Below are positions 25,476 through 48,415 of a stretch of DNA of 64,000 bases, one piece after another. The notes beneath the pieces are model-generated. The model searched no databases. It saw only the letters and a program-made list of their open reading frames with translations, and was not told where the DNA came from. Source of the stretch: Solirubrobacterales bacterium (GTDB taxonomy: Bacteria > Actinomycetota > Thermoleophilia > Solirubrobacterales > 70-9); NCBI GenBank assembly GCA_044867815.1, contig JBIOVP010000064.1, positions 549-64,548 of the forward strand, in the 5' to 3' direction. Within the stretch, counting starts at the first letter, position 1; every line of letters begins with the position of its first letter. A program made the translations under genes and the position numbers.

Positions 25476-25491
25476 GGAACGTCGATGTTCC
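25476..25491. promoter_or_regulatory. Near-palindrome GGAACGTCGATGTTCC in the divergent TetR intergenic region (candidate operator)
   Basis: 14 of 16 positions are self-complementary. It abuts the motif TCCTTGGCAACACC, which recurs upstream of the secreted-protein cassettes. Confidence 0.35.
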
Positions 25492-25552
25492 TTGGCAACA
25501 CCAAAGGAGTTTTTTCAAGCGCCCGGGACCGGCTTCCGTTTATCCTCCACCC

Positions 25553-26206
25553 ATGGCGGGTGGAGCGAAACGAGGGCGCCGCGCCCAACCGGGCGGCCAT
25601 CCCCTGCGCCGCGAGGTGGTTGCCCACCATCAACGCCAGCGCATCCTCGCCGGCGCCGCCAGGGTCTTCGCCGAGCGTGGCTACAGGCAGGCGTCGGTGG
25701 CGGACATCGTCAAGGCCGCCGCGATCGCCCGCGGCCGCTTCTACGACAACTTCTCCTCCAAGGAAGACTGCTTCTTCGCCCTCTACGACGCCGCCACCGG
25801 AGCCACGCTCGAGCGCGTCGGCCGCGCCTGCGCGGAGTCGATCGAGAGCTTTCCCGAGCGCGTCTCGGCCGGAATCGGGGCGCTGCTCGCCGCGATCGAG
25901 GCCGAACCGGAGGCGGCCCGGGCCTGCGTCGTCGAGGGCCCGGCCGTGGGCCCGGCGATCAACGAGCGCTTCGAGAAGCTGATCGACGATTTCGCCGGCC
26001 TGTTGCGCTCGGGGCGCAGCGAGGCCCCCTCCTCCGAGCTGCCGGAAACCGTCGAGGAGACCGTGGTCGGCGGCCTCTACTGGCTGCTCTACTACGCCCT
26101 GCTGGAGCAGCGGCCACGGAAGGTCAGCCGCCTGCGCGCCCAGCTGGTCGAGTTCTCGCTGATCCCCTTCGTCGGCGCCGAGGCGGCCGCGGCCGCGGCC
26201 GGATAG
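25553..26206 (+). CDS. TetR-like regulator, array member 5
   Basis: Start at MAGGAKRG. Contains HPLRREVVAHHQRQRILAGAARVFAERGYRQASVADIVKAAAIARGRFYDNFSSKEDCF. Confidence 0.75.
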   Translation: MAGGAKRGRRAQPGGHPLRREVVAHHQRQRILAGAARVFAERGYRQASVADIVKAAAIARGRFYDNFSSKEDCFFALYDAATGATLERVGRACAESIESFPERVSAGIGALLAAIEAEPEAARACVVEGPAVGPAINERFEKLIDDFAGLLRSGRSEAPSSELPETVEETVVGGLYWLLYYALLEQRPRKVSRLRAQLVEFSLIPFVGAEAAAAAAG

Positions 26207-26881: not shown

Positions 26882-27562
26882 GTGTCGACCAAACTGCCGG
26901 CGGAGGATCCGCATCAGCCCGACGAGCTGGCGCAGCTGCCGCACGGCCGCCACGGCCTGCCCCAGGAGTTCGTCGAGCACAACCAGCGCGAACGCCTGAT
27001 CGCCTCCTTCGTCGGGATCGTCGGCGAGGGCGGCTACAGCAGCGTCACGATCACCGCCGTGATCGACGGCGCCGGGGTGGCCAGCCGCACCTTCTACCGC
27101 TATTTCGACACGATCGACGACGTCTGCGTCGCCGCCTTCGAAAAAGGGCTGGGCGACCTGCGGCCGCTGGTCGTCGGCGCCTACGAGGGGGAGGGGGAGT
27201 GGCCGCGCCGCATCCGCGCCGTCCTCGCCGCCGTCCTCGCCGACTTCGCCGAGTACCCGGAGCTGGCGCGGCTGCTGACCGCCGAGCCGTTCGTCGCCGG
27301 GCCCGAAATCGCCCGCCTGCACAAAGCCGCGGTTGAGGAGCTGGTGCCGTTCCTGCGCCTGGGCCGGGAGCTGCGCGAGGACGGCGAGTCACTCCCCGAC
27401 ACCGCCGAGCGCGGCATCCTCGGCGCCGTCAACTCGATGGTCGCCCGCCAGGTCGTGGCCGGGCGCGGGGAGGGGCTGGGGTCGCTGCTCCCGGACCTCA
27501 CCCAGTTCGTCCTGACGCCGTATCTCGGCGCTTCGGCGGCCCGCCGAATCGCCTCCGGCTGA
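26882..27562 (+). CDS. TetR-like regulator, array member 6
   Basis: GTG start. Contains HGLPQEFVEHNQRERLIASFVGIVGEGGYSSVTITAVIDGAGVASRTFYRYF and the C-terminus LLPDLTQFVLTPYLGASAARR. Confidence 0.78.
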   Translation: MSTKLPAEDPHQPDELAQLPHGRHGLPQEFVEHNQRERLIASFVGIVGEGGYSSVTITAVIDGAGVASRTFYRYFDTIDDVCVAAFEKGLGDLRPLVVGAYEGEGEWPRRIRAVLAAVLADFAEYPELARLLTAEPFVAGPEIARLHKAAVEELVPFLRLGRELREDGESLPDTAERGILGAVNSMVARQVVAGRGEGLGSLLPDLTQFVLTPYLGASAARRIASG

Positions 27563-27798: not shown

Positions 27799-27905
27799 GA
27801 CGCCGTCTCCTCGGGTAGGAGACCGGCAGCAGGACGCCGCCACCCGGCGCCGCCGCCGCGATTCGAGGGCCACCAGGGGGCCCAATGGGAGAAGGAGAGA
27901 CACAA

Positions 27906-30900
27906 GTGAAGGCACGGGACTTGTTCGCCGCTGGGTTCGGCCGCTCGAAGGCTCTGTTTGCGATCGCCGCCGCGCTTGCCACGGCGACCCTTGTGCTCGG
28001 TGTCTCCCTGGCCGCGGCCGCGCCCCCTGCCCTGACGATCGACGCCCCCAGCGGCGTCGAAACCACCAAGGCCCACGTCTCCGGCGAAGTCACCGTCCCG
28101 GCCGAGGGCCCGGAAGTCTGGTGGGGCTTCGAATACGCTGTCCAAGGCAGCGGCCAGTGGTCGGGTTTCCCCTTCTCGGGCACGGTCCCGGCCGGCGAAT
28201 CCCAGGCGGTGCAGGCAGACCTCACCGGCCTGAAGGCAGGCACCACCTACGAAGTCCGCCTCTTCGCCGACGACTTCAGCGGCACCCAGGCCGAAAGCCC
28301 AGTCGAATCCTTCACCACCGACCCCGCCACTGTCGAGCCCGCCCTCGTCCTCGACCCCGCCGCCGCCTCCTACCTCTCCGCCCAGCTACAGGGCACCATC
28401 GACCCCGAAGGCGGCAACCAGGAAGCCGGCGGCAGTTATGTGCCGATCCACTGGGCGCTGCAGATCTCCCAAACCGGCGAACCGGACAGCTTCAGCGACG
28501 TCGCCGCCGGCGACCTGACCGAAGACGGCGAACAGGCGAAAGCCGACGATCCGATCGCCGTCTCGGCCGAACCGGGCGGCCTCAGCCCCGGCACCACCTA
28601 CCACTACCGCCTGCTCGTCACCTACGCCGGCCAGACCGTCGAGCCGGTCCCGGGTGGGGAATTCACCACGCTCCCGGTGGCGAAGCCGACGATCTCCAAC
28701 CTCGCCGTCAGCGACGTCGCCGGCGAGGGGGCGCACCTCTCGGCCGAAATCGACCCCGGCGGCTCCGCCTCCGCCTTCGACACCGCCTGGGAGTTCCAGT
28801 GCGTCCCAGCCTGCCAGGGCCTGCAGGGCGGCACGGTCTCCGGCTCGGCGCAGACCGTGGAGAACGACGCCACCGGCCTCGACACCAACACCAGCTACAC
28901 GGTCAGCCTCACCGCCACCAACGCCGGCGGCTCGGTCAAAGACTTCACGACTTTCAACACGGGAACCGCCGCCCCGGAAGTCATCTCCTTCGATGCAGGC
29001 CCGGTCCTGCCCACCTCGGCAGAGCTGAACGCCGAAATCCGTCCCCGCGGCTCCGACACCGTCTACTGGTTCGAGTGGGGCGGCGAGGACTGCTCGCAGC
29101 CCGGCGCCGACTGCGCGGCGGTGCCGGCTGAGAAGGACGCCAGCGCCGGCTCCGGACAGTTCTTCAGGTACGTCTCGCGCAAGATCGCCGGCCTCGCCCC
29201 CGAGACCACCTACCACTTCCGCGTCGTCGCCGAGAGCGACGCCGGCACCACCGCCGGCGAGGACCGCGAATTCACCACCCCCGCGCCCGAACCGCCGTGC
29301 GCGAACGCCGGCATGCCCGGCACCGGGTTCCTCCCCAGCTGCCGCGCCTACGAGATGGTCTCGCCGCCCGACAAGAACGGCGCCGACGTCATCGCCTCGA
29401 GCTTCAAGACCTTCGCCGCCACCGACGGCAGTGATGCCGTCGCCTTTCCCGCCACCGGCGCCTTTGCCGGCCCCCGCGGCACCGAGACCGATTCCCAGTA
29501 CCTCAGCCGCCGCACCGGCGCCGCCGGCACCAATGGCTGGACTACCAAGGCCATCTCTCCTCCTACCGGTTCGCTCCCGCTTCTTCATATTCCTTTCAGC
29601 GGTCCTACCTTTGACGCGGCTTTCACTCCCGACCTCACCGCCGCCGTCTACCGCACGCCGAGCCCTTTGACGGATTCCCCTAACGTTGCCGGCGTCCGCA
29701 ACCTCTACCGCATCACCGATCTCGAGTCAGGATCTCCACAGGTCGACCTTTTGACTGCTTCTGCGGCCCCCCTCGGCTCTCCTCCCGGACCCTTCGGCCA
29801 GCTCCTGAAACTGCAATTGGGGAACACTTTCGCGGCTGCATCTGAGGATCTCGGTAACGTGATCTTCCAGTCGCCCTACGACCTCACTGGCGACGGCAGT
29901 TGGCTGGGGGGGCAGGGGGAAAGCAGTGACCTCTATGAGTACGCCGACGGCGCTGGTGTCCGCCGCGTCGGCCGGGTTCCGTCGGACCCCGGCATCGCTG
30001 TCTGCGACGACGTCGTCGGCCCGCCATGTGTCGACGCAGTCGCGCAGGCCGGCATCAAAGCGGACGTCCGCCAGACGAATTCACTGTACTCGGGATCAAT
30101 GATCTCGGATGACGGCTCCCGCATCCTAATTTCGGCAGGCGGCGGTCTCTATATCCGGGAAGACGGGGTCCGCACCGTCAAAATCGACGCCTCCGAGAAG
30201 ACCGAACCTGAGTCCCCGGGGGCTGCAGAAGCCTGGGACATGACCCCCGACGGCAACCGAGTTTTCTTCATCACCAGGGAGGGACTTGTCGATGGTGATG
30301 ACGGTGACGAAGGCTCCGAGGACGATGCTTACATGTACGACTTCGAAGCTCCCGCAGGCGAACGCCTCACCCGGCTTTCTGATACTGGATCTCGGCATTG
30401 TTATGCCCGAAAGATCTTCGGTGCAAGCGAGGACGGCCACTCCGTCTACTTCACCTGCCGTGATCAACTCGTACCAGGAGCCCCGGAGGCTGAGGCCGGA
30501 CTCTACCTCTGGCACGACGGCTCGGTCTCCTACATCGGCAAATTCGACGAGCAGAATTTTCCTCTTGACGAGATATACAACACCCCCCTCCTAGAATGGC
30601 AAGTACTCCTTGCGAAAGGCTCCCGGATATCGTCTGGTGGCCGCTCCCTCCTCTTCATCGCCAATGACGGGCACGGCTTTGTCGGTAGAGGCGGATTCTC
30701 TGGCTTTGAGCACACCGGTCATCGCGCCCTCTATCTCTACAACGCTGACACCGGCCGGCTTGTCTGCGCCTCCTGCGACCCTCATGGGACCTCTGCGTCC
30801 TATGAGGCATACACCGATTTCAAGAGCCAGGTCAGTGCGGTACAGAACACGCAGCATCTCTCCCATGCCCTCTCCCGGGATGGTCGCTACGTCTTCTTCA

Positions 30901-31385
30901 GCACTTCGGGGGCTCTGGTGCCCGAGGACACCAATGGCGAAACCTACGACGCCTACCAGTACGACTCGCTGACCGGCGAGGTCCGCCTCCTCTCATCCGG
31001 CACCGACGAGGCCGACTCCGTATTCATGGACGCCTCCCCCGATGGCCGCGATGCCTACTTCGCCACCCGCGAGCGGCTCGTCGGTTGGGACACCGACACC
31101 AGCTACGACCTCTACGACGCCCGCGTCGGCGGCGGGTTCCCCGAGCCCGTTCCGGAGCCCGACTCCTGCCAGGGGGACTCCTGCCTCACCGCCCCTGCCT
31201 CAGCACCGCCCCCTGCCGCTGCAACCAGCGAGACCCTCGGTGAAGGCAACCCGACCCGTACCTGCCCGAAGGGCAAGCGCCCCGTGCGCAAGAACGGTCG
31301 CATCCGCTGCGTCAAGAAGGGCAAGCGACATGCGAAAGGCCACCAGAAGCGACACGCCAACAACGACCGGAGGGTCGCACGATGA
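27906..31385 (+). CDS. A1: giant secreted protein (4 FN3-like repeats, TolB/PD40-like beta-propeller region, CxxxxC plus basic tail)
   Basis: GTG start after GGAGAGA, homologous to the start of A2 (VKARD). Signal/TM segment ALFAIAAALATATLVLGVSLAAA. Repeats end in TTYxxR..A.. motifs. Also has FLPSCRAYEMVSPPDKNGADV, DG..V.F-type repeats and the tail ..GGGFPEP..CQGDSC..KKGKRHAKGHQKRH. Confidence 0.9.
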   Translation: MKARDLFAAGFGRSKALFAIAAALATATLVLGVSLAAAAPPALTIDAPSGVETTKAHVSGEVTVPAEGPEVWWGFEYAVQGSGQWSGFPFSGTVPAGESQAVQADLTGLKAGTTYEVRLFADDFSGTQAESPVESFTTDPATVEPALVLDPAAASYLSAQLQGTIDPEGGNQEAGGSYVPIHWALQISQTGEPDSFSDVAAGDLTEDGEQAKADDPIAVSAEPGGLSPGTTYHYRLLVTYAGQTVEPVPGGEFTTLPVAKPTISNLAVSDVAGEGAHLSAEIDPGGSASAFDTAWEFQCVPACQGLQGGTVSGSAQTVENDATGLDTNTSYTVSLTATNAGGSVKDFTTFNTGTAAPEVISFDAGPVLPTSAELNAEIRPRGSDTVYWFEWGGEDCSQPGADCAAVPAEKDASAGSGQFFRYVSRKIAGLAPETTYHFRVVAESDAGTTAGEDREFTTPAPEPPCANAGMPGTGFLPSCRAYEMVSPPDKNGADVIASSFKTFAATDGSDAVAFPATGAFAGPRGTETDSQYLSRRTGAAGTNGWTTKAISPPTGSLPLLHIPFSGPTFDAAFTPDLTAAVYRTPSPLTDSPNVAGVRNLYRITDLESGSPQVDLLTASAAPLGSPPGPFGQLLKLQLGNTFAAASEDLGNVIFQSPYDLTGDGSWLGGQGESSDLYEYADGAGVRRVGRVPSDPGIAVCDDVVGPPCVDAVAQAGIKADVRQTNSLYSGSMISDDGSRILISAGGGLYIREDGVRTVKIDASEKTEPESPGAAEAWDMTPDGNRVFFITREGLVDGDDGDEGSEDDAYMYDFEAPAGERLTRLSDTGSRHCYARKIFGASEDGHSVYFTCRDQLVPGAPEAEAGLYLWHDGSVSYIGKFDEQNFPLDEIYNTPLLEWQVLLAKGSRISSGGRSLLFIANDGHGFVGRGGFSGFEHTGHRALYLYNADTGRLVCASCDPHGTSASYEAYTDFKSQVSAVQNTQHLSHALSRDGRYVFFSTSGALVPEDTNGETYDAYQYDSLTGEVRLLSSGTDEADSVFMDASPDGRDAYFATRERLVGWDTDTSYDLYDARVGGGFPEPVPEPDSCQGDSCLTAPASAPPPAAATSETLGEGNPTRTCPKGKRPVRKNGRIRCVKKGKRHAKGHQKRHANNDRRVAR

Positions 31386-34300
31386 ACATCCGACGTTTGC
31401 GGTTCCTTCCCGTCGCCGTTCTTGCCGTCGCAGTGGGCATGGCCACTTCCGCCACCGCCGCCGCTGCCCAGGTCAGGTGGGAGGGAACGTCCACCTCTAA
31501 CACCGCCGCCGCCCCGGGCGAAACCCTCGAATTCGCCGTTACCCTCACCAATCTCGGCGATGTCTCCTCGGTTGGCACGACCGAGCTGACCGCGACCCTT
31601 CCTGAGGGCCTCATCCCCACCGCCGTCACTAACCTTGCTGGTTTTCCCATCGGGTCGTGCGTCATCGTTGCCGCGGTGGTTACCTGCGAAATCAGCGAAT
31701 CGGTCCCTGTCAACCAAAAAGCGGGACTCGGAGGCACCTTCAGGCTCCTCGCGGATGTTGATTCTGGCGCTGACGGCTCTGAAACCGTCTATTTCGAAGC
31801 TTCCGGCGGCGGCGCCCCCTCGCCTGACTTTTGGGCAGACCCCGTCCAGATCTCCGGTGAGGAGTCGCCCTTCGGCATCGACGCCTTCGACGCTCTCGCC
31901 ACCGACGGGGATGGATCCATTTCCACCCAGGCTGGCCGGCATCCGAGTCAGTACTCAAACTCCTTCGACTTCAACCGCCACACCGATTCCACCTTCGGTT
32001 CCCGCTTTCCCGTCGAGGACGCTCGCGACGTCTTCGTCGACCTCCCCCCGGGCTTCGTCGGTGCCGTTGTCGACCTCCCCCAGTGCACCCTTGCCCAGCT
32101 CGCCAACGGCACCGCCGTCACCGACGTGAGGCCAGCTTGCGCTCCCGGGTCCCAGCTCGGAATTGCCCGCATCCGCATTCCCGAAGGCGAAACCAATTTC
32201 GTGGCCATCTACAATCTTGCCCCTCCCCCGGGTGTCCCGGCCCGCTTCGGTCTCAATGTCGCGGGAACCCTCATCGTCCTCGACACCCACCTCGTCTCCG
32301 ATGACGATGGCTATCACCTCCGCGTCGGCTCCACCGGCGTCGCCCAGGCCCTTGCCATCGACGGCAACAGCCTCGAATTCTGGGGCGTCCCCGCCGATCC
32401 CGCCCACGAATCCCAGCGCTCCTGTGCCGCTCAGAACCCGCCTTCTCAGGGCGGCACTCCCTGCCCGAGCGATGCCGAGCCGCGGGCGTTCTTCCGCAAC
32501 CCCACGACCTGCGCCGGGCCCGCGGGCCTGACGACCACCATCGCCGCCGACTCCTGGCAGAACCCGGGCGACTTCGCCCTGCGCTCGATCCAGGGCCACG
32601 ATCTCCCCGGCTACTCGTTCCCGGAGAGCGAGTGGGGCGACCCGCTGGGCATCGAAGGCTGCGACGAGGTCCCCTTCGAACCGACCCTCGACGTCGACGT
32701 CACCACGAACGCCGCCGACAGCCCCACCGGCCTCTCCGTCGACCTCGGCCTTCCCGACGACTGCTGGCTGCCGAAGGCGACCGCCGAGGAAGCCGAAGAA
32801 GCGCTCTGCCAGTCCGACCTCCGCTCGGCCGCGGTCACCCTGCCGCCGGGCCTCGCGCTCAACCCCTCCGCCGCCAACGGCCGCAAGGCGTGCAGCCCGG
32901 CGCAGGCCGGCGTCACCTCGCCGGTCGGCCGGGTCCCGGTCGCCTTCGACGAAGCTGCGGTCACCTGCCCCGACGCCAGCAAGATCGGCACCGTCGAGGT
33001 GCAGACGCCGCTGCTCGACGACCCGCTCGGCGGCGCCGTCTACCTCGCCGAGCAGTCCCACAACCCCTTCGGGTCGCTGCTGGCGATGTACCTGGTGATC
33101 GAAGGTCAGGGCATCCGCATCAAGCAGGCCGGTCGAGTCCAGCTCGGCGAGGACGGGCAGCTGACCACGGTCTTCGAGGAGACCCCGCAGACCCCGTTCT
33201 CAAACCTCCACGTCGAGCTCTTCGGCGGACCGCGGGCCGCGCTGCGCACCCCGGCCGCCTGCGGCACGCACACCGCCACCGCGAAGCTCACTCCCTGGTC
33301 GGGGACCGGAACCGTCCAGAGCCAGGGCTCCTTCCAGGTCAGCGAGGGCTGCGGCGGCGGCTTCGACCCGAAGCTCTCGGCGGGAACCGAGACCCCGCTC
33401 GCCGGCTCCTCGAGCCCGTTCAACCTGCGGATCACCCGCGCCGACGCGACCCAGGAGGTCGCCGGCCTGCAGATCGACCTGCCGCCGGGGCTGCTGAGCT
33501 CGCTCAAGGGGTACGCCTACTGCAGCGACGCCGCCCTCGCCGCGGTCTCCGAGGACCTCGGCACCGGCAGGGCCCAGGAAGCCGCGCCGGCCTGCCCCGC
33601 CTCGAGCCTGGTCGGCACCGTCACGGTCGGCGCCGGGGCGGGGGTCAACCCCTTTTATACGACCGCGGGCAGGGCCTACCTCGCCGGCCCCTACAAGGGC
33701 GCCCCGGTCTCCCTCGCCGTGATCGCCCCCGCGGTCGCCGGACCCTTCGACCTCGGCTCGGTGCTGGTCCGCAACGCGATTTACGTCGACCCGACCAGTA
33801 GCCGGCTGCGGATCGCCAGCGACCCGATCCCGACGGTCCTGCACGGCGTTCCCCTCGACCTGCGCGACGTCCGCGTCCACTACAACCAGACCCTCAACCC
33901 GACCAGCTGCGAACCGTTCCAGGTCGGCTCGAAGATCACCTCGGCCCAGGGCGCGACCGCCAGCCCCTCGGTCCACTTCCAGGCCGCCGGCTGCGACCGC
34001 CTCGGCTACAAGCCCCGCCTCGTCCTGCGGCTGAAGGGCGGCATCAAGCGGTCCGCCAACCCGGCGCTGACCGCGGTGATGCGCCCGCGGGCCGGCGACG
34101 CCAACAGCGGTCGGATCCAGGTCGCCCTGCCGCACTCGGAGTTCCTCGCCCAGGCCCACATCCGCACGATCTGCACCCGCGTGCAGTTCGCCGCCAACCA
34201 GTGCCCGAAGGGATCGATCTACGGGCGCGTCAGCGCCGTCAGCCCGATCCTCGACTACGTCCTCACCGGCAACGTCTACCTGCGCAGCTCCGACAACCCG

Positions 34301-34594
34301 CTGCCGGACCTGGTGCTGGCGCTGCGCGGCCCCGCCCACCAGCCGGTCGCGATCGACGCCGTCGGGCGCATCGACCAGAAGGACGGCGGCATCCGCACCA
34401 CCTTCTCCGGCCTCCCGGACGCGCCGCTGACCAGGGTCGTGCTGCGGATGCAGGGAGGGGAGAAGTCGCTGCTCGAGAACAGCGTCAACATCTGCCGCCG
34501 ACCGCACCGGGCGACGGTGCAGATGGACGGCCAGAACGGCAAGCTCCGTGACTTCCGGCCGAAGCTGCGGGTCGCCTGCGGCAAGCGGAAGTAG
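31382..34594 (+). CDS. B1: 1070-aa secreted Cys-rich protein of unknown family (DUF11/CARDB-like N-domain plus conserved B core)
   Basis: ATGA overlap with A1. Signal peptide MNIRRLRFLPVAVLAVAVGMATSATAAAA. Contains TQAGRHP, NPFGSLLAMYLV, AGPYKGAPVSLAV..GPFDLGSVLVR, NPTSCEP and the end ..NICRRPHRATVQMDGQNGKLRDFRPKLRVACGKRK. Confidence 0.9.
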   Translation: MNIRRLRFLPVAVLAVAVGMATSATAAAAQVRWEGTSTSNTAAAPGETLEFAVTLTNLGDVSSVGTTELTATLPEGLIPTAVTNLAGFPIGSCVIVAAVVTCEISESVPVNQKAGLGGTFRLLADVDSGADGSETVYFEASGGGAPSPDFWADPVQISGEESPFGIDAFDALATDGDGSISTQAGRHPSQYSNSFDFNRHTDSTFGSRFPVEDARDVFVDLPPGFVGAVVDLPQCTLAQLANGTAVTDVRPACAPGSQLGIARIRIPEGETNFVAIYNLAPPPGVPARFGLNVAGTLIVLDTHLVSDDDGYHLRVGSTGVAQALAIDGNSLEFWGVPADPAHESQRSCAAQNPPSQGGTPCPSDAEPRAFFRNPTTCAGPAGLTTTIAADSWQNPGDFALRSIQGHDLPGYSFPESEWGDPLGIEGCDEVPFEPTLDVDVTTNAADSPTGLSVDLGLPDDCWLPKATAEEAEEALCQSDLRSAAVTLPPGLALNPSAANGRKACSPAQAGVTSPVGRVPVAFDEAAVTCPDASKIGTVEVQTPLLDDPLGGAVYLAEQSHNPFGSLLAMYLVIEGQGIRIKQAGRVQLGEDGQLTTVFEETPQTPFSNLHVELFGGPRAALRTPAACGTHTATAKLTPWSGTGTVQSQGSFQVSEGCGGGFDPKLSAGTETPLAGSSSPFNLRITRADATQEVAGLQIDLPPGLLSSLKGYAYCSDAALAAVSEDLGTGRAQEAAPACPASSLVGTVTVGAGAGVNPFYTTAGRAYLAGPYKGAPVSLAVIAPAVAGPFDLGSVLVRNAIYVDPTSSRLRIASDPIPTVLHGVPLDLRDVRVHYNQTLNPTSCEPFQVGSKITSAQGATASPSVHFQAAGCDRLGYKPRLVLRLKGGIKRSANPALTAVMRPRAGDANSGRIQVALPHSEFLAQAHIRTICTRVQFAANQCPKGSIYGRVSAVSPILDYVLTGNVYLRSSDNPLPDLVLALRGPAHQPVAIDAVGRIDQKDGGIRTTFSGLPDAPLTRVVLRMQGGEKSLLENSVNICRRPHRATVQMDGQNGKLRDFRPKLRVACGKRK

Positions 34595-35873
34595 GGCCGA
34601 GCCGCGACGGCGGCTGATCGAGGCGATGACCCGGGTTGTGGCGGCCGACGGCTACGCGGGCGCCAGCGTCGCCCGGGTCGCCGCCGTCGCCGGTGCCTCG
34701 CGGGCGACCTTCTACGAGCACTTCCGCTCCCGCGAGGCGTGCTTCGAGGCCGCCTACCGCAGCGGCGTCGAGGAGGTCCTGGCCCGCGCCCGCGGCGCCT
34801 CGGAGCCGGGCGATCCCGCGACCGTGATCGCCTCGCTCCTGCGCCAGGCGAGCGAGGAGCCCGAGCTTGCGCGCCTGCTTCTGGTCGAGGCGATGGCCGG
34901 CCCGAGCGCGATCCGCCGCGATCGCGAGCGCCGGCTGCTGGCGGCCGAACGGTCGCTGATCCGCCGCGGGGACTGCCTCCTGCAGCTGCCGCCGGGAACC
35001 CTCCACGGGGGCATCACCGCCGTGGCCTCATCCGCGGTGATCGGCGGGGACGAGCAGCAGCTGGCGGGCCTCCTGCCGCCGCTCACCGCCTGGGTGCGGA
35101 GCTACGCCCGGCCCGCCGGCGCGGAGACCTGGGACGAGGGAGCCTGGCGCGACCTGGGGAGACGGGTTCTCGGCGCCGGGCCGGGAGCCGGGGGAGAGGC
35201 ACCCGCCGGCCCGCCTCCGCGCCTCCCCCGGGGTCGCAGCGCCGCCCCGGCCTCCTACTCGGCCCAGCACCGCCGCCGCCGGATCCTCGACGCCACGATG
35301 GAGGTCGTGGCGGCGAAGGGGTACGCGGCGGCCAGCGTCGGCGAGATCGTCGCCAGGGCGCGGGTCGCGCGCGGCGCCTTCTACTCGCACTTTCGCTGCA
35401 AGCGGGACGCCTTCCTGGCGGCGGTGACGAGGAGCCTGCAGGAGAGCGTGGCCGCCGCCGCGCAGGGGTTCTTCCCCGACCGCGTCTGGCCCGATCGCGT
35501 CTGGAACGGCCTGCGGGGCCTGCTGGACTACCTGGGGCGGAACCCGGATGCCGCCCACGTCGGCATCGTCGGGTTCTACGCGGCCGGCGAGCCGGCTCTC
35601 CGCCAGAGCCTGCACAACCGCCAGGCATTCACGCTGTTCCTCGCCGACGGCTACCGCCAGAGCGAGCGGGCCGAGATCCTGCCGAGCCTCTTCTCGGAGG
35701 CGATCGCCGGCGCCGTCGAAGGGTTGATCAGGGGGCGGATCCTCGAAGGGGCGGGCGACCGGGTGCTGGAGCTGCTGCCCCAGTGCGCCTATGTGGCGCT
35801 TGCCCCGTTCATCGGCAGCGAGGAGGCCCTGGAGCTCGTCACCGCAAAGTCCCATGGCCGAACAGTGGAGTGA
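34548..35873 (+). CDS. Fused tandem (double) TetR-like regulator
   Basis: Two complete family units in one 441-aa chain (RRRLIEAMTRVVAADGYAGASVARVAAVAGASRATFYEHF.. and RRRILDATMEVVAAKGYAAASVGEIVARARVARGAFYSHF..). The GTG start lies 47 nt inside the end of B1. Confidence 0.75.
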   Translation: MTSGRSCGSPAASGSRAEPRRRLIEAMTRVVAADGYAGASVARVAAVAGASRATFYEHFRSREACFEAAYRSGVEEVLARARGASEPGDPATVIASLLRQASEEPELARLLLVEAMAGPSAIRRDRERRLLAAERSLIRRGDCLLQLPPGTLHGGITAVASSAVIGGDEQQLAGLLPPLTAWVRSYARPAGAETWDEGAWRDLGRRVLGAGPGAGGEAPAGPPPRLPRGRSAAPASYSAQHRRRRILDATMEVVAAKGYAAASVGEIVARARVARGAFYSHFRCKRDAFLAAVTRSLQESVAAAAQGFFPDRVWPDRVWNGLRGLLDYLGRNPDAAHVGIVGFYAAGEPALRQSLHNRQAFTLFLADGYRQSERAEILPSLFSEAIAGAVEGLIRGRILEGAGDRVLELLPQCAYVALAPFIGSEEALELVTAKSHGRTVE

Positions 35874-36039
35874 CGAGACGGACAGTGGTGGTTTCGCAGA
35901 GCCGGACCGGGGTCGAGGTTTTCGTTTTTCACCCGCACCATAGGCGGCTCGGCAGCATGACCTCGTTTGCACCCCACGCTTTCGTATCCATTGCCCCCGG
36001 CAGGTGGCGCTGGGAGGTTGCGCGCGACTGGTAATGGCA

Positions 36040-36062
36040 CCGCACCCGTCGGGTGCGGTTTG
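36040..36062 (+). terminator. Intrinsic-terminator-like hairpin
   Basis: CCGCACCC-GTC-GGGTGCGG followed by TTTG, downstream of the double TetR gene and upstream of the 36079 gene. Confidence 0.5.
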
Positions 36063-36078
36063 CCACCCCAAGGAAAGG

Positions 36079-36684
36079 ATGGAAATGAAGAATCTCGGAA
36101 AGGCCTCGGCACTTGCCGTCGCCTCCTGCCTGCTGCTGCTGGTTGCCGCGTCGTCGGCGATGGCATCTGAGGTCCCCGCGAAATTCTCCAGCAACACCGC
36201 GATCAAAGTCACGGGCACCGGCCTCACCGTGAAGAAAAACGGTGGGGAAGCGAAGACCTGTGAACTCACCAGCGCCACCGGCTCGGTCGCGAACTCGACC
36301 GACGGGACCAATCAGGGGGTTCTCACCGCGCAGAACGAAGAACCCTTCTACCGGACCAAACTCTCCTGCACCGGCGGCACCTCGCTGCAGTTGATCCTGG
36401 CCCTCGGTAGCGCCAAGTACGAGACGACGACGGGGGCGTATTCCCTGCGCTTCTCTCCGTTTGCCGGGAACTCCGTCTCGAGCCCCTACGGGACCTACTA
36501 CTGGGCCTTCGGTGCAGCCAATGTGCAGGTCGGATGGACCAACGGCTCCGGCGCGACCGCCTCGACGCTGAATTTCAGCGAAACGAACATCGGCACCCAC
36601 ATCGACGAAAAATCCAAAATTACCCTGACGGGCTCGCTCAAAGTGACTACCAGCGTTGGCGGTTTGGTGACGCTCAGTCACTAG
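36079..36684 (+). CDS. S: small secreted Thr/Ser/Gly/Asn-rich protein of unknown function
   Basis: AAGGAAAGGA RBS with ATG at 36079 or 36085. Signal peptide MKNLGKASALAVASCLLLLVAASSAMA|SE. About 175 mature aa with a beta-rich-looking composition and visibly lower GC. It has its own terminator. Confidence 0.7.
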   Translation: MEMKNLGKASALAVASCLLLLVAASSAMASEVPAKFSSNTAIKVTGTGLTVKKNGGEAKTCELTSATGSVANSTDGTNQGVLTAQNEEPFYRTKLSCTGGTSLQLILALGSAKYETTTGAYSLRFSPFAGNSVSSPYGTYYWAFGAANVQVGWTNGSGATASTLNFSETNIGTHIDEKSKITLTGSLKVTTSVGGLVTLSH

Positions 36685-36701
36685 ACAACTCCGACGCCGA
36701 T

Positions 36702-36738
36702 GGGGGACTCGGCTCTTGTGTCGAGTCCCCCGCCTTTT
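36702..36738 (+). terminator. Rho-independent terminator of the S gene
   Basis: Perfect 10-bp stem GGGGGACTCG/CGAGTCCCCC with a 10-nt loop, followed by GCCTTTT. Confidence 0.7.
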
Positions 36739-36796: not shown

Positions 36797-36808
36797 TCAC
36801 GGGACAGG

Positions 36809-37042
36809 GTGACTCCCAGGGTGAGGAAATTGTCAGGGTGGCTGGCCGTGTTATGCGGCTCGGCGGCGATACTCGCCGCGGTGACGAACGGCGCCGACTG
36901 CGATGGCGACGAATGTCAGGTTCCGCCGGCGCCGCCGGCGGAGGTGATCCCCGCCACCTCGGTGGTCAACGGCCCTCCGAACCCGCCGGTCCACTTCCCC
37001 AAGCGTCACAAGGCGAAGGGCAAGAACGGCAAGCGGAAATGA
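36809..37042 (+). CDS. T3: 77-aa 'tail-only' secreted protein (signal peptide, CxxxxC, Pro-rich linker, Lys/His-rich tail) resembling the C-terminus of A1/A2
   Basis: Sequence is MTPRVRKLSGWLAVLCGSAAILAAV..NGADCDGDECQVPPAPP...FPKRHKAKGKNGKRK. ATGA overlap with the B3 start, the same junction as A1-B1 and A2-B2. Confidence 0.6.
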   Translation: MTPRVRKLSGWLAVLCGSAAILAAVTNGADCDGDECQVPPAPPAEVIPATSVVNGPPNPPVHFPKRHKAKGKNGKRK

Positions 37043-39789
37043 TCCGGGTCGCCCTGGCCGCACTGGTCGCGGTGGCGTTGACGGCCGCCCCCTCGGCGAG
37101 CGCGTTGGAGCTGAGCGGGTTCGAGGTCACAGCGGAGAAGTTGAGCGGGGCGGCGGAGACGCAGGCCGGTGCCCATCCCTACACCCTCCGGGTCGGCCTC
37201 GAGGCGGACGAAGGGCTGGGGATGCTCCGCCTCTCGCTTCCCCCCGGCTTCCTCGTCAACCCCACCGCGGTCGCCGAATGCAAGGCGACGGCCTTCGCCA
37301 CCCCGCGCAGCTCCCCCTTCGAAGCGAGCGCCTCCGGCGAGAGCTGCCCCAACTCCACCCAGGTCGGGATCGCGACGGTCGAGACGACCGCGGGGACCCG
37401 CACCTTCGGCGTCTTCAACCTCGTGCCCCCCTTCGGCTCCCCCTTCGCCTTCGGGCTCTCGCCCTTTGGCACCCCGCTGGTCCTCGCCGGGCGCCTGCGC
37501 GAAGCCGACTCCGGCCTCGACCTGCAGCTGAGCGGTGTGCCGCAGGCGCTCGGTTTGCGCTCACTGCAGCTGACGATCTGGGGGACGCCGTGGTGGGGCG
37601 ACGACTCCACCCACCCGGCGGAGTCCCACGACTCCCAGCGCGGCAACTGCCTGAACGAGCAGACCGGCGGCTCCCACGGCAGCTGCCCCGTCTTCGGCTC
37701 CGCGGGGGCGTCGGACGGGCTGATCGAGAGCGACCTGACCCTGCCGACCACCCCCTGCGGCACCCCGCCCGGGTTCGCCCTCGCCGCCACGGCGTCCACC
37801 GGCGCGACCGACACCGCCACGGCGGCGATCGCCGCGCTGGTCAAATGCAACAAAGCCCTGACCACCCCGAAGGTGCAGCTGATGACCGATGCGGCGGCGG
37901 CGCGGACCGGCCTCGCCTTCAACCTCGAGGTCAACGACGGCGGCGGCATCCTCAACCCCGGCGGCATCGCCCGGCCGGCGGTCAAGCAGGCGATCCTCTC
38001 GCTGCCGGAGGGTTTGACGATCAACCCCTCGCTCGGCGCCGGCCTCGGGGCCTGCTCGGAAGCTGACTTCGCCCGCGAGACGGCCGCCTCCGAGCCGGGC
38101 GCCGGCTGCCCCAACGGCTCGAAGATCGGCAGCGTCGTCCTCGACGGGGCGCTCGGCCTCGACGAACCGCTGCAGGGGGCGGTCTACCTCGCGCGGCCCC
38201 ACGCCAACCCCTTCGGCACGCTGCTCGCGGTCTACATGGTCGCCCGCTCGCCGCGCCGCGGCCTCGTCGTCAGGTCGCAGGGGAAGATCGAGCCGGACCA
38301 GCGCAGCGGCAGGCTCGTCGCCACCTTCGACCAACTGCCCCGCCTCCTCTACACCCATTTCGGCCTCACCCTGCGCGAAGGCCAGCGCTCGGCGTTGCTC
38401 AGCCCGCCCTCCTGCGGCACCTATCCCGCCGACCTCGAAATCGCCTCCTGGGCCGAGCCGGCGGTGTTCGCCCACACCTCCTCCTACTTCCTGATCAACC
38501 GCGGCGACGGCGGCCCCTGTCCGCCCGGCGGGGCGCTGCCCTTCGCGCCCCACGTCCTCGCCGGCTCGGTGGGAGCGAACGCCGGCGCCTACAGCCCCTT
38601 CTACCTGCGGATCGACCGCGGCGACGGCGAAGCGGCGATCGCCTCCTACTCGGCCACCTTTCCCCCCGGCCTGCTCGGCAGGATCGCCGGGGTCGACAAC
38701 TGCCCGGAGGAGGTGATCGCGGCCGCGGCCCGGCGCAGCGGCGCCGAGGAGCAGGCGAGCCCCGGCTGCCCCGCGTCCAGCTCGATCGGCCACACCATGG
38801 CGGGCTACGGCGTGGGGGGGACGCTGGCCTGGGCGCCGGGCGGCCTCTACCTCGCCGGCCCCTACCGCGGCGCCCCGCTCTCGATCGTCGCGATCGACGC
38901 GGCGACGATCGGCCCCTTCGACCTCGGCACCGTCGTCGTCCGCCAGGCGGTCCGGATCGACCGCCGCAGCGCCCAGGTCTCGCTCGACGCCGCCGGGTCC
39001 GACCCGATCCCCCACATCCTCGCCGGGATCCCGCTGCACCTGCGGGACATCCGCGTCTACGTCGACCGGCCGGGCTTCATGCTCAACCCGACCAGCTGCG
39101 ACCCGATGCGGATCTCCTCGCGCCTCGGCGGCGCCGGCGCCAACCCCTTCGACCCCGCCGACGACACCGTCGTCGAGGCCGGCCAGCGCTTCCAGGTGCT
39201 CGGCTGCACCGCGCTCGGCTTCCGCCCCGGGCTCTCGCTGCGCCTGCGCGGCTCGCTCCGCCACGGCGGCTACCCCTCCCTGCGCGCCACCTACAGGCCC
39301 CGCCGCGGCGCCAACCTCGGCGCCGTCTCGGTGACCCTGCCGCGCTCCGCCTTCCTCGCCCAGGAGCACATCGACGGCGTCTGCACCCGCGCCCAGTTCG
39401 CCGCCTCCGCCTGCCCCGCCGCCTCCGTCTACGGGCGCGCCCGGGCGGTGACGCCGCTGCTCGACGAGCCGCTGCAGGGCCCGGTCTACCTGCGCTCCTC
39501 CCGCACCGCCGTCCCCGACCTCGTCGCCGACCTGCGCGGGCGGGGGATCGAGATCGAAGTGCCGGCCCGGATCGACTCCTCCCGGGGCGGCATCCGCGCC
39601 AACTTCGAAGCCCTCCCCGACGCGCCCGTGACCAGCTTCGCGATGACCCTCTTCGGCGGCAGGCGCGGCCTCGTCGCCAACGCCGAATCGCCCTGCCGGG
39701 GGATCCACCGCGCCAACGCCCGCCTCGTCGCCCAGAGCAACCTGACGGCGATCCTGCGGCCGCGCCTGCGCGCGAGGTGCCGGCGATGA
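37039..39789 (+). CDS. B3: 916-aa secreted B-family protein (no DUF11-like N-domain)
   Basis: Signal peptide MIRVALAALVAVALTAAPSASA|LE. Contains TQAGAHP, NPFGTLLAVYMV, AGPYRGAPLSIVA..GPFDLGTVVVR and NPTSCDP, with a basic Cys-containing end (..RLRARCRR). Confidence 0.9.
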   Translation: MIRVALAALVAVALTAAPSASALELSGFEVTAEKLSGAAETQAGAHPYTLRVGLEADEGLGMLRLSLPPGFLVNPTAVAECKATAFATPRSSPFEASASGESCPNSTQVGIATVETTAGTRTFGVFNLVPPFGSPFAFGLSPFGTPLVLAGRLREADSGLDLQLSGVPQALGLRSLQLTIWGTPWWGDDSTHPAESHDSQRGNCLNEQTGGSHGSCPVFGSAGASDGLIESDLTLPTTPCGTPPGFALAATASTGATDTATAAIAALVKCNKALTTPKVQLMTDAAAARTGLAFNLEVNDGGGILNPGGIARPAVKQAILSLPEGLTINPSLGAGLGACSEADFARETAASEPGAGCPNGSKIGSVVLDGALGLDEPLQGAVYLARPHANPFGTLLAVYMVARSPRRGLVVRSQGKIEPDQRSGRLVATFDQLPRLLYTHFGLTLREGQRSALLSPPSCGTYPADLEIASWAEPAVFAHTSSYFLINRGDGGPCPPGGALPFAPHVLAGSVGANAGAYSPFYLRIDRGDGEAAIASYSATFPPGLLGRIAGVDNCPEEVIAAAARRSGAEEQASPGCPASSSIGHTMAGYGVGGTLAWAPGGLYLAGPYRGAPLSIVAIDAATIGPFDLGTVVVRQAVRIDRRSAQVSLDAAGSDPIPHILAGIPLHLRDIRVYVDRPGFMLNPTSCDPMRISSRLGGAGANPFDPADDTVVEAGQRFQVLGCTALGFRPGLSLRLRGSLRHGGYPSLRATYRPRRGANLGAVSVTLPRSAFLAQEHIDGVCTRAQFAASACPAASVYGRARAVTPLLDEPLQGPVYLRSSRTAVPDLVADLRGRGIEIEVPARIDSSRGGIRANFEALPDAPVTSFAMTLFGGRRGLVANAESPCRGIHRANARLVAQSNLTAILRPRLRARCRR

Positions 39790-40547
39790 AACGGGTGGCG
39801 CTCGCCCTCGTCGTGGTCCTCGCCGTCGCCGTCCCGGCCGGGGCCGACGAGGTCGTGCAGCGGGGCAACCTCCGCGTCGCCTTCGACGGCGGCCTGGCGC
39901 CGCGGAAGCTGCCGCGGCGCGGGCCGGCCCCGGTGACGGTCGAGCTCGGCGGGCGGATCTTCACCACCGACGGCAGCGACCCGCCGGGCCTGAGCGAGCT
40001 CGAGCTCGCGATCAACCGCGGCGGCCGCATCGACCCGGGGGCGCGGCCGACCTGCCGCCTCGACCGGATTCAGCCCGCCTCGACCACCTACGCGCGCCGG
40101 GTCTGCGCCGCCGCCCGGGTGGGGGAGGGGACCTTCAGCGCCGCGGTCGCGATCCCCGAGCAGGCGCCCTACCCATCGCGCGGCACGGTGACCGCCTTCA
40201 ACGGCGTCGAGGCGGGCCGGCCGGTGGTCCTCCTCCACGTCTACGGGACCGAACCGCTGCCGACCTCCTTCACCCTGTCGCTCTCGATCCGCCGCAGCGG
40301 CGGCCAGTTCGGCACCGTCCTGCGCGGCTCCCTGCCCACCGTCGACTCCCACGTCGGCTTCGTCACCGGGATCTCCCTGCGCCTCGACGGCGGCCACGGC
40401 CGTCGTCCCTACCTGAGCGCCAGCTGCCCGGCGCCCCGCGGCTCCACCCTCGCCGTCTTCCCCCTCGCCCGCGCCGGCTTCTCCTTCGCCGACGGCCGCG
40501 TCCTCCGCTCGACCCTGATCCGTTCCTGCACGGTGCGGAAGGGCTAG
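39786..40547 (+). CDS. C1: 253-aa secreted C-family protein
   Basis: ATGA overlap with the B3 stop. Signal peptide MKRVALALVVVLAVAVPAGA|DE. Contains CRLDRIQ..ARRVCAAARVGEG..IPEQAPYPS..LLHVYG. Paralogs are at 58213..58974 and 61134..61907. Confidence 0.85.
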   Translation: MKRVALALVVVLAVAVPAGADEVVQRGNLRVAFDGGLAPRKLPRRGPAPVTVELGGRIFTTDGSDPPGLSELELAINRGGRIDPGARPTCRLDRIQPASTTYARRVCAAARVGEGTFSAAVAIPEQAPYPSRGTVTAFNGVEAGRPVVLLHVYGTEPLPTSFTLSLSIRRSGGQFGTVLRGSLPTVDSHVGFVTGISLRLDGGHGRRPYLSASCPAPRGSTLAVFPLARAGFSFADGRVLRSTLIRSCTVRKG

Positions 40548-46010: not shown

Positions 46011-47297
46011 CTAGCCGCAGGCGACCTCCCAGGCCTCCTCGGCCCCCAGCAGCGGCGCCAGCGCCAGGTAGGTGGCGAAGGGGACCAGCTCGCCGAGGCG
46101 CTCGACACCCTGCTCCCGCACCCAGAGGAAGAGCAGGGCGTGGATCGCCGCCAGGGTCGCTTCCAGCGGCACCGGCTCGATCCCGGTCGGCGCCTCGGCG
46201 GGCAGCGAGCACAGCACGGAGACGATCTCGGCCTCGTGGCGGTCGCGCAGCTGCACCGCCTCCAGCCCCAACCCGTAGACCTCGACCGAGCGCAGATGGG
46301 CGAAGGCGGGCTCGGCGGCGAGGAAGCCGAAGATCGCCTCCAGGGCGACCCGGAGCGCCGCCGGCCAGGGCGGTGCCCGCCGCACCGCCGGCAGGGTCGC
46401 CGCCACGAGCTGGGCCCCACTCGAGTCGAGCGCCGCGTTGAAGGCGTCTTCCTTGTCGCGGAAGTGGGCGTAGAAGGTGGCCTGGGAGATCGAGGCCCGG
46501 GCCACCACGTCGGAGACCTTGGTGCCGGCGTAGCCTTTCTCGGCGACCACGGCGGCGAAGGCGCGAAGGATCCGCTCGCCGGAGAGGTGGGCGGCGAACG
46601 GGGGCGCCTCGCTGGCCGCGGCGCGGTTGCGGCGGGTCGGCGAGCGCAGCGGCCGCGGCGGCGGCGGCACCGAGAGAACCCAGCGTCCGAGCGCCGAGGC
46701 CAGCTCCTCGATCCCCTCGATCTCGTCCCTCGCGAGCCGGCGGGCCACCACCCCCGCGACGCCACCGAGCAGCGCCCGTGTCAGCTCTGGCGGCATACCC
46801 TGGCGTCCGGGGGTCTGCTCGAAGGCCGCCTGCAGCAGCTCGCCCGTCCGCTTTTCGACCTCGTGCATCCGGCCCCGGGCCTCCTCGCCGGCGCTGAACG
46901 CCTCGACCAGGAGGAGCCTGGCGGCGTAGGGCTGGTGCGCCAGCATCTGAGCCAGCGCCCGGCCGACCGCCACCACCCCCTGCTCGGGACCGTCCACGTC
47001 CAGGGGTCCCTCCGCCACCTGGCGCCTGGTGATCGCGACGATCTCGTCGAGCGTCGCCAGGAAGCACTCCTCCTTGTCGGCGAAGTGCTGGTAGAAGGAG
47101 CGGCTGGAGACGCCGGAGATCTCGACCAGGTCGGCGACCGAGGTCGCCCGGTAGCCCTTGGTGGAGGCCACCGCGACCATCGCCGCGAAGAGCCGTTCGC
47201 GCTGGTTTCGCCGCGCCACCTCCCGCGGGGTACCGCGCCCGGGGGCGAGGCGCCGCTCGTGCAGCGTGCTTGCGTTCCCCCAAGGCGTCATCACCAT
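46011..47297 (-). CDS. Fused tandem (double) TetR-like regulator, second copy
   Basis: Two family units (RNQRERLFAAMVAVASTKGYRATSVADLVEISGVSSRSFYQHF.. and ERILRAFAAVVAEKGYAGTKVSDVVARASISQATFYAHF..). The start is uncertain (47297 or 47357). Confidence 0.75.
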   Translation of the reverse strand: MVMTPWGNASTLHERRLAPGRGTPREVARRNQRERLFAAMVAVASTKGYRATSVADLVEISGVSSRSFYQHFADKEECFLATLDEIVAITRRQVAEGPLDVDGPEQGVVAVGRALAQMLAHQPYAARLLLVEAFSAGEEARGRMHEVEKRTGELLQAAFEQTPGRQGMPPELTRALLGGVAGVVARRLARDEIEGIEELASALGRWVLSVPPPPRPLRSPTRRNRAAASEAPPFAAHLSGERILRAFAAVVAEKGYAGTKVSDVVARASISQATFYAHFRDKEDAFNAALDSSGAQLVAATLPAVRRAPPWPAALRVALEAIFGFLAAEPAFAHLRSVEVYGLGLEAVQLRDRHEAEIVSVLCSLPAEAPTGIEPVPLEATLAAIHALLFLWVREQGVERLGELVPFATYLALAPLLGAEEAWEVACG

Positions 47298-47560
47298 TGC
47301 GGCGGCAACATATCCGGCCAATTCGACCCCCGGAGCTGTGGTGAAGCAACGGTACACCCGCGCTTCTAAAGCGACCCCAGGGGGTGCCGCAAACCCAGTG
47401 CTGATGCCGGTTCCCGACCCTTGACGCGGATCTTCGCTCCCCTTGCGGCCGCCGCCGCGACGCGGGCGTCGCTCCCCGGCTCAACGAGGGTCTATTCCTG
47501 ACAAAACCAATGCCTATCCTTTAACTGCCCCACGGCAGGGTGGGCGGTACCTCAGGTTTT

Positions 47561-48349: not shown

Positions 48350-48372
48350 GGCGGCTCGGGAAGCCGCCTTTT
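48350..48372 (+). terminator. Terminator-like hairpin inside the A2 leader (possible attenuator)
   Basis: GGCGGCT-CGGGA-AGCCGCC followed by TTTT, located between the candidate promoter and the A2 start codon. Confidence 0.4.
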
Positions 48373-48415
48373 GACAACAAAGGTCCGGCAGGGGCCAGAG
48401 GACAAGGAGAGATAC

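Follow-up and report, generated by a model that had tools for sequence, protein, structure and literature searches.

A free-standing counterpart of a C-terminal protein tail is encoded directly upstream of a secreted beta-sandwich protein in Solirubrobacterales

The stretch of DNA analysed here, which we call the window, covers 64,000 nucleotides (nt) of the genome of a Solirubrobacterales bacterium (contig JBIOVP010000064.1). It contains two gene pairs, A1-B1 and A2-B2, in which the C-terminal tail of a large A-type protein is encoded immediately before a B-type protein. A third B gene, B3, is preceded by a small open reading frame (ORF) at 36809-37042, which encodes a signal peptide and a tail, and no A body. 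What could such a tail do on its own, and why is it found at this place? A reading of the sequence made without database searches (hereafter the sequence-only reading) had proposed that the tail is the part of A that works with B. The comparative evidence presented here is strong and partly supports this proposal; a physical pairing of the tail with B is putative. The features at stake are the following.

36809-37042, plus strand: the tail-only ORF, 77 amino acids (aa) from GTG 36809 or 73 aa from GTG 36821, with its stop codon TGA at 37040-37042.
36809-36895, plus strand: its signal peptide, residues 1-29, with an RVRK n-region, the h-region LSGWLAVLCGSAAILAAV and TNGA before the predicted cut.
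36899-37006, plus strand: its tail core, made of the Cys loop CDGDEC, a Pro-rich spacer and GPPNPPVHFPK.
37001-37039, plus strand: its polybasic end, KRHKAKGKNGKRK.
37039-39789, plus strand: B3, 916 aa, secreted, its ATG overlapping the stop codon of the small ORF (ATGA), without the N-terminal domain of the B1/B2 type.
39786-40547, plus strand: C1, 253 aa, secreted, with two beta-sandwich domains, its ATG overlapping the stop codon of B3 (ATGA).

We considered the possibility that B3 begins at the upstream GTG 36838, as far as which its frame is open, and that the small ORF is a spurious overlap. This was ruled out by the GC content at third codon positions (GC3) and by the quality of the B3 signal peptide. 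In this GC-rich window (about 65-75%), GC3 amounted to 0.83-0.90 in the small-ORF frame over 36800-37069, and the high-GC3 frame changed to that of B3 at 37040. The signal peptide of B3 reads cleanly from ATG 37039, and B1 and B2 align from there. Because of this frame switch, of a match to the database protein P0121 (NCBI and Logan sourced), whose 73 aa correspond to the product from GTG 36821, and of the presence of orthologues 5' of all six B3 orthologues found in a scan of genomes, we conclude that the small ORF is real and coding by composition. Its start codon is ambiguous (36809, 36821 or 36830); the translation of 36809-37042 is VTPRVRKLSGWLAVLCGSAAILAAVTNGADCDGDECQVPPAPPAEVIPATSVVNGPPNPPVHFPKRHKAKGKNGKRK. 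Orthologues are present in 12 further loci, and the cleavage site was placed from those in which AxA directly precedes [DE]C. The mature peptide would count about 48 residues and comprises DCDGDEC, 18 residues, GPPNPPVHFPK and the polybasic end, its first 30 residues being acidic (net -5) and the remainder basic (net +8). The order of signal peptide, CDGDEC, Pro-rich spacer and basic end was thus as first described. A sigma-70 scan 5' of the small ORF gave no promoter, and an Rfam scan of the window from 26 to 56 kb gave no RNA family. Pfam at E<=0.1 contained no family for the small ORF, B1-B3 or C1, and NCBIfam had no match for the tail of the small ORF.

To relate this tail to those of the A proteins, we could not rely on a word-indexed homologue search with the 77-aa ORF, which returned just 4 proteins because small ORFs are seldom called. 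In its place, we used six-frame scans at the DNA level with profile hidden Markov models (HMMs) and an exhaustive search of representative proteins. The scans covered the window and 86 loci, namely six genomic loci from the B3 genome scan and 80 metagenomic loci from a scan with a B alignment. The corresponding gene pairs and tails of the window are listed below.

27885-31385 and 31382-34594, plus strand: A1 (FN3 repeats, propeller and tail) and B1, the upstream half of the module described further on.
31167-31385, plus strand: the A1 tail, CQGDSC, 18 residues, GEGNP, a second Cys loop CPKGKRPVRKNGRIRC and a basic end, its stop codon overlapping the B1 start.
48371-51517 and 51514-54669, plus strand: A2 and B2.
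51308-51517, plus strand: the A2 tail, CRSDGC, 18 residues, GRGNV, a second Cys loop and a basic end, its stop codon overlapping the B2 start.

The small ORF, with CDGDEC, 18 residues and GPPN, has in common with A1 and A2 the C-x4-C loop, a Pro-rich spacer of 18-19 residues, G-x-x-N and a polybasic end. When the pattern C.{4}C.{18,19}G..N was run against the 2,340 six-frame ORFs (315,780 aa) of the window and the six related genomic loci, it matched 13 of them, which were exactly seven small ORFs and six A tails, including those of A1 and A2. An HMM built from the six A tails found the small ORF of the window with E=5.4e-7 and the other small ORFs with E-values from 2.5e-4 to 1.5e-3; reciprocally, an HMM of the small ORFs found an A tail with E=2.2e-5. 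A similarity due to low complexity only was ruled out by the conserved spacing and by the exclusivity of the pattern. These comparisons showed the tail module to be homologous between small ORFs and A tails, and bore out the resemblance to the A1 and A2 C-termini that had been seen by eye.

This was extended by a search of 1.84 billion representative proteins (E<=1e-3) with a profile of four stand-alone peptides only. It retrieved 62 clusters, of which about 42 were proteins of 60-172 aa and about 19 were A-type proteins of 400-1381 aa, the match lying in their final ~55 residues. The tail core was present in all 19 proteins examined among the 20 longer ones (at least 241 aa), and in 18 of these 19 it came after ...D[ILV]YDAR.GGG.P, with which the A-type propeller ends. 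Only P0256 (241 aa), a short protein with a long N-terminal extension, had no propeller end before the core. The consensus of 90 tails was C.GdaCQ..p..P.dptPgt....g.gNp. The basic end varied in sequence and length; every tail examined had a net charge of at least +6 after the core, with a median of +9 in small ORFs and +16 in A proteins. No hydrophobic or transmembrane-like stretch was found in any tail (maximum 15-aa Kyte-Doolittle mean 1.17). A1 and A2 contain a second Cys pair in their basic part (C-x14-15-C; CPKGK...RC), which the small ORF lacks. As this second loop was absent from 18/18 stand-alone tails and from 29/66 A tails, it is optional and does not define the module. At L048, a distant B3-type locus, the tail of the A protein is nearly identical to the window peptide (CDGDACQVLPGAPDDPTPGTQVPGPANPPVHFPKAHKK). 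At L004 (9559-10089), the small ORF has a frameshift in its basic end, perhaps from an assembly error, the correct frame reading PKKKHHPKKHHRGGRN; in P0284, an A fragment, the tail continues in frame into a B N-terminal domain.

We then looked at the position of the tails relative to B genes. An HMM of the 36-residue core, run on 15,536 six-frame ORFs (1.74 million residues; E<0.01), gave 92 matches, each of them on the strand of B and at the C-terminus of its ORF. A B gene lay within 1 kb downstream of 87 of these 92 tails. At 76 of the 87 tail-B junctions, stop and start codons overlapped by 4 nt ([A/G/T]TGA), and TGATG or TAATG was present at six more (~94% together). The window itself has ATGA at its four junctions, A1/B1 (31382), A2/B2 (51514), small ORF/B3 (37039) and B3/C1 (39786), exactly as noted initially. 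These results supported the view that the tail is an autonomous conserved module, in all likelihood translationally coupled to B and almost always encoded directly 5' of it.

The carriers of the module were of three kinds: about 66 A-type propeller proteins, 18 proteins with a signal peptide and a tail only, and one fusion of the tail to a B1-like protein (L006). Stand-alone tail ORFs upstream of B homologues, anticipated from the window, were thus found elsewhere. A hydrophobic leader lay within 40 residues of the first Cys in 18/18 stand-alone tails versus 7/68 A carriers. The A carriers, roughly 600-1670 aa from stop to stop, differed in their N-terminal parts (FN3, NHL repeats, Ig-like domains); in those whose sequence was examined, the propeller ending in ...YDARVGGGFPEP was constant. 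The body of A, which had been considered as an exchangeable payload, varies in its N-terminal part, but not, in the carriers examined, at its propeller end. In L006 (6174-9938), the B1-like ORF reads without a stop into the tail (...VRCGKRSRALMLNRGSAFAAECEGDECQ...), directly before B3, and this tail has no signal peptide of its own.

Did the tail-only form arise once or several times? In a neighbour-joining tree of 85 B proteins, a clade of 13 (the window, L001-L011 and L052) comprised 12 stand-alone ORFs and the L006 fusion; within it, B3 identity was at least 60%. The tail-only singletons L019, L036, L040, L042 and L047 fell outside this clade, and their B genes were 57-71% identical to the closest A-linked B versus 51-66% to any other tail-only-linked B. 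The tail-only ORFs thus appear to have arisen in one clade of 13 and in about five further lineages nested among A-linked B genes. In front of more distant B3-type genes (45-50% identity), the place of the small ORF is taken by a full A-type propeller protein, about 600-870 aa long. At L035 (2597-5370), an ATGA overlap links A3, which has its own tail, to a second ORF consisting of signal peptide and tail only, and B3 comes next. The tail may have been duplicated here and the A body not yet lost. The placement of the singletons and L035 would therefore mean that the A body was lost, or the tail duplicated, several times, and that signal peptide, core and coupling to B were kept each time.

Selection on the tail was estimated with the 36-codon core in 78 pairs within the clade of the window's ORF. 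The median ratio of nonsynonymous to synonymous substitution rates (dN/dS) was 0.29 (pN/pS, the ratio of the corresponding proportions of differences, 0.39; mean pS 0.51). By this measure, the core is under purifying selection, and a pseudogene remnant was ruled out by this value and by conservation across 13 loci. Tree and codon comparison together show, as far as they reconstruct the past, repeated loss of the A body with retention of signal peptide, tail and coupling to B under purifying selection.

The small ORF, B3 and C1 had been taken for a third, separate cassette. Synteny indicated otherwise. In the six genomic loci (five metagenome-assembled genomes of Solirubrobacterales and one uncultured Actinomycetes bacterium; most metagenome loci are unlabelled), B3 was 65-76% identical to that of the window and the small ORF lay directly upstream in 6/6. 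The gene order was A, B1, (double TetR), small ORF, B3, C1. An independent third cassette was ruled out by the synteny A-B1-(TetR)-tail-B3-C1 in L002-L011: the unit made of small ORF, B3 and C1 belongs to the A1-B1 module, of which it forms the conserved downstream half. In the window, the TetR gene listed below and a gene for a secreted protein (36004-36684) lie between A1-B1 and the small ORF.

34548-35873, plus strand: double TetR regulator, between B1 and the tail ORF, found at the same place in L003, L009 and L010.
36701-36732, plus strand: strong terminator-like hairpin with a 13-bp stem followed by CCTTTTACAT, located after gene 36004-36684, at the upstream edge of the small-ORF/B3/C1 unit.

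The gene at 36004-36684 (plus strand) encodes a secreted protein of ~200 aa and has a lower GC1 (GC content at first codon positions) and GC3 than its neighbours. Neither the six genome loci nor the first six metagenome loci gave a tblastn match to it at E<=1e-6, and Pfam gave none either. The gene seems to be a lineage-specific insertion by which the A1-B1/tail-B3-C1 module was split.

C1 had been seen as an addition special to the tail-only cassette. This proved not to be the case, as C1 followed 12/15 tail-only-linked B genes versus 17/58 A-linked B genes (counting those with enough downstream sequence); in L036, L040 and L047 it is located 1-2 kb further downstream. We found 425 homologues of C1, and the best 120 listed had no Pfam domain. 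Its structure model (predicted local distance difference test, pLDDT, 90.1) shows two beta-sandwich domains. C1 is weakly similar to the first B module (profile comparison, probability 38%, E=3e-4), and natural B3-C1 fusions exist (P0004, P0007, P0058 and P0061), in which a short basic linker takes the place of the C1 signal peptide. Fusion-like lengths of 1135-1207 aa were found for 10 of the best 120 B3 matches; the four examined are these B3-C1 fusions, and six are assigned by length only. Two more C1 paralogues of the window lie far from any B gene, at 61164-61895 (plus strand; 36% identity) and 58216-58914 (minus strand; 30%), and L004 has a C1-like gene 5' of another A-B cassette.

What kind of protein is the neighbour of the tail? 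B3 had 1,669 homologues; the best 120 listed were at least 57% identical, had no Pfam domain and either bore no name or were annotated as 'hypothetical protein'. Relatives of B are encoded in at least 562 metagenome stretches. B1 shares 37% identity with B3 and 42% with B2 across the ~900 residues common to them, and 18 Cys are conserved. The first ~140-165 residues of B1 and B2 are missing from B3. That B3 lacks an N-terminal domain present in its paralogues therefore holds, but the label 'DUF11-like' given to this domain is weak: TIGR01451 (DUF11) matched residues 38-77 of B1 below threshold (19 bits for a cut-off of 24, E=0.001), B2 gave no match and B3 is without the region. In the AlphaFold model (all-beta, pLDDT 86.7, predicted template modelling score 0.75), B3 is a string of immunoglobulin (Ig)-like beta-sandwich domains with conserved Cys pairs. 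All-beta Ig-like models of B3 and C1 are as would be expected of a scaffold or stalk. A PDB sequence search with a B profile gave nothing meaningful, and a Foldseek comparison of the B3 model with the PDB retrieved generic arrays only, with template modelling (TM) scores <0.2 (SafDAA pilus subunits, integrin alpha legs, factor XIII). Because the fold searches yielded only such generic Ig-array matches, the stalk or scaffold role is one that we infer. B1, B2, B3 and C1 end with a Cys and a few basic residues (34570-34594, CGKRK; 54640-54669, CGKAGRKR; 39770-39789, CRR; 40530-40547, CTVRKG), which recalls, on a very small scale, the basic ends of the tails.

Taken together, these data lead us to favour, with belief evenly divided for and against, the view that the small ORF is an exported free-standing tail module, whose core docks on B and whose basic end tethers to an anionic surface. 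The module has two parts, a sequence-specific acidic core (the C-x4-C loop, a Pro-rich part with D-P-T-P-x-T, and G-x-G-N-P-P) and a polybasic end of variable sequence. With its specific sequence and its extended, Pro-flanked form, the core would suit docking on a folded protein partner, for which B, being co-translated and co-secreted, is the candidate by guilt by association. The tail, rather than the body of A, would be what B needs. Its core may dock onto co-secreted B as a linear or strand-adding peptide. The variability of the polybasic end suggests electrostatic attachment, so that the cationic end would keep the complex attached to an anionic surface, for instance cell-wall polymers or some other polyanion. 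The tail of A-type proteins would mount a propeller/FN3/NHL head on the B stalk; in the lineage of the window, B3 would receive the adaptor only and be headless. C1 would lengthen B3 by one more B-like module, whether fused to it or made separately from the coupled gene.

Known systems offer partial precedents. The pairing of cohesins and dockerins is a functional analogy only: there, too, variable secreted payloads with differing N-terminal domains have a common small conserved C-terminal module, and the partner is a secreted protein of repeated beta-sandwich modules. Yet there is no sequence relation, Pfam giving neither a dockerin nor a cohesin match, and the tail is of the Cys-loop/Pro-rich/polybasic type, whereas dockerin has a Ca-binding duplicated EF-hand-like fold. 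Furthermore, pairing here would be 1:1 through gene coupling, in contrast to the many enzymes per scaffoldin. Donor-strand complementation in chaperone-usher pili provides a second comparison. The best Foldseek match of B3 was SafD-A-A of the Saf pilus with its donor strands (PDB 5y9h, E=3e-9), and a short extended peptide that completes or docks onto an Ig-like domain would fit the conserved, Pro-flanked, strand-prone tail core. However, the TM-scores of B3 (0.12-0.19) indicate a generic Ig-array resemblance only, and the tail is C-terminal, with a disulfide loop and a polybasic end. In addition, no chaperone or usher genes were found among the conserved neighbours, and the hosts are Solirubrobacterales (Actinomycetota). 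Actinomycetota are generally regarded as Gram-positive. As for the integrin alpha chain, A has a beta-propeller and both B3 (E about 1e-8) and C1 (probability up to 0.99, TM 0.36-0.40 on query) match leg domains, but head and legs are here separate polypeptides, and the likeness is at the level of the common beta-sandwich fold, with 5-10% sequence identity.

Several points weigh against docking on B. The C-terminus of A adjoining the B start is automatic in any A-B operon, so that real weight attaches only to the tail-only loci and the B1 fusion. The fold matches of B3 are generic (TM<0.2), and the C1 model had no PDB match at E<0.01 with Foldseek. The HMM scores between the small ORF and the A1 tail of the window are weak: the core HMM picks up the A2 tail at E=1e-4 and misses A1 at E<0.01. 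The purine-rich ribosome-binding region of B3 coincides in part with the polybasic end, whose composition could to some extent reflect a constraint at the nucleotide level. Finally, a second Cys loop was present on 19/24 tails whose B has an extra N-terminal domain versus 18/42 tails whose B has none (Fisher p=0.005), but this correlation ignores shared ancestry. The B partners of all 18 stand-alone tails lack the extra domain, and those tails lack the second loop; we regard this apparent co-variation as one weak piece of evidence in favour of docking.

On a broader scale, it is possible, though we put this forward tentatively and expect it less than not, that the tail is an undescribed peptide docking module which, with a B/C Ig-like stalk and exchangeable A propeller heads, builds a modular surface appendage or matrix in soil Solirubrobacterales, with the polybasic end fixed to the envelope. 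Free tails would then act as adaptors without a head, serving as cap, primer or anchor for B3 stalks, and lineages would have switched repeatedly between headed and headless forms.

We considered the possibility that the tail acts as an envelope or polyanion anchor only. The cationic tail would fix A to wall polymers, membrane or extracellular DNA without binding B, and the free peptide would occupy or compete for sites, or condition the surface for B3. In Lactobacillus, S-layer proteins are held to teichoic acids by cationic regions, and mycobacterial HBHA binds sulfated glycans through its Lys-rich tail. Every tail is strongly basic at its end (net at least +6), this end differs in sequence and length from tail to tail, as is typical where binding is electrostatic, and the tails have no hydrophobic segment. 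The S-layer anchoring regions and the Lys/Ala/Pro-rich HBHA tail are likewise strongly basic low-complexity C-termini of secreted surface proteins without a membrane segment; the tail of L014 (AKKKKAAKKKAAKKK) looks HBHA-like. Yet, the basic stretch of the tail follows a conserved acidic Cys-loop core, and the module is also free-standing and coupled to a partner gene. Anchoring alone leaves unexplained the sequence specificity of this acidic core, conserved over 90 tails, the stop/start overlap with B, kept at ~94% of junctions, also where the A body has been lost, and the siting of the B1-tail fusion exactly before B3. We therefore judge it unlikely, though the best placed of the alternatives to docking on B.

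Another explanation is that the tail is a sorting, processing or modification signal for machinery that is not encoded nearby (O-glycosylation of P-T-P-x-T, a protease or an attachment enzyme), the small ORF being a decoy or substrate. Its extreme C-terminal position and its short conserved motif followed by basic residues, common to otherwise different secreted proteins, are also those of the LPXTG/sortase, PEP-CTERM and MYXO-CTERM signals. No enzyme would be required in cis, and the Pro/Thr-rich DPTPxT motif resembles actinobacterial O-mannosylation sites. However, the tails lack the hydrophobic helix between motif and basic residues, the transmembrane segment of LPXTG and PEP-CTERM signals; neither NCBIfam nor Pfam detected a sorting domain; and, in the 86 neighbourhoods, no enzyme gene was conserved, sortase-like or other, TetR regulators being the only conserved neighbours. 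This makes a sorting signal improbable in our eyes.

We also asked if the small ORF could be a coding remnant, the 3' end left by a deletion of the A3 body and kept only for the ribosome-binding site of B3 and for coupling, with a functionless peptide. Such a role would agree with the ATGA overlap and the purine-rich 3' end (AAGGCGAAGGGCAAGAACGGCAAGCGGAAATGA) directly before the B3 start, and the terminator-like hairpin upstream means that translation of B3 must begin from a short leader ORF. It would not account for conservation of the core at the amino-acid level, far from the junction, with dN/dS about 0.29 for a pS of about 0.5, nor for a signal peptide kept or re-created in 18/18 stand-alone cases in about six lineages, nor for about 42 distinct stand-alone clusters library-wide. 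We give this explanation little credence. Still harder to credit is an independent bioactive peptide, antimicrobial-like or signalling, acting on other cells after co-option from a structural tail: although with its ~48 aa, its richness in Pro, its positive charge and its single disulfide loop it is similar in composition to Pro-rich cationic peptides and it is predicted to be exported on its own, it is always locked to B3 through overlapping codons, the same module occurs on large structural proteins, and no immunity, transporter or maturation genes lie nearby.

The wider neighbourhood of the cassettes showed a few further features. Searches of A1 and A2 in Pfam and NCBIfam gave FN3/PD40-type matches only, and no chaperone, usher or sortase-like genes were present among the conserved neighbours. 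The cassettes are flanked by TetR regulators, double (two TetR_N, ~440 aa) and single, at 34548-35873 (plus strand), 46011-47357 (minus strand), 25472-26206 and 26882-27562; the first of these ORFs overlaps the 3' end of B1 by 47 nt. Downstream of B2, 54752-56230 (plus strand) encodes a secreted protein with many CPSxxLC(V/A)AV-like repeats, a basic region (GKKAKKGGKRPKRPR) and a Cys-containing C-terminal domain, which is not C1-like. It is followed by 56273-58111 (plus strand), a secreted protein of 612 aa, whose C-terminal FN3 domain cross-matches the FN3 region of several A-type carriers.

The B, C and tail families appear to be undescribed, and we found no relevant description in the literature on Solirubrobacterales surface or beta-propeller proteins. 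The principle, a stand-alone copy of a C-terminal module beside its presumed partner, would be a variant of modular surface-protein assembly. These families have no sequence relatives in Pfam, NCBIfam or the PDB, yet they are abundant, with 1,669 B homologues and about 60 tail clusters at 50% identity. The tail-only ORF shows which ~48 residues stay when the whole A body is discarded, and so indicates which part is important for B. The peptide is small and can be synthesised, which makes it a natural minimal tool for working out the function of the tail, and its gene of 230 nt, versus 3.5 kb for A, provides a genetic handle. If the idea of docking is true, the tail and B would represent a new pairing system between a peptide and Ig-like modules, and possibly a tag for protein assembly.

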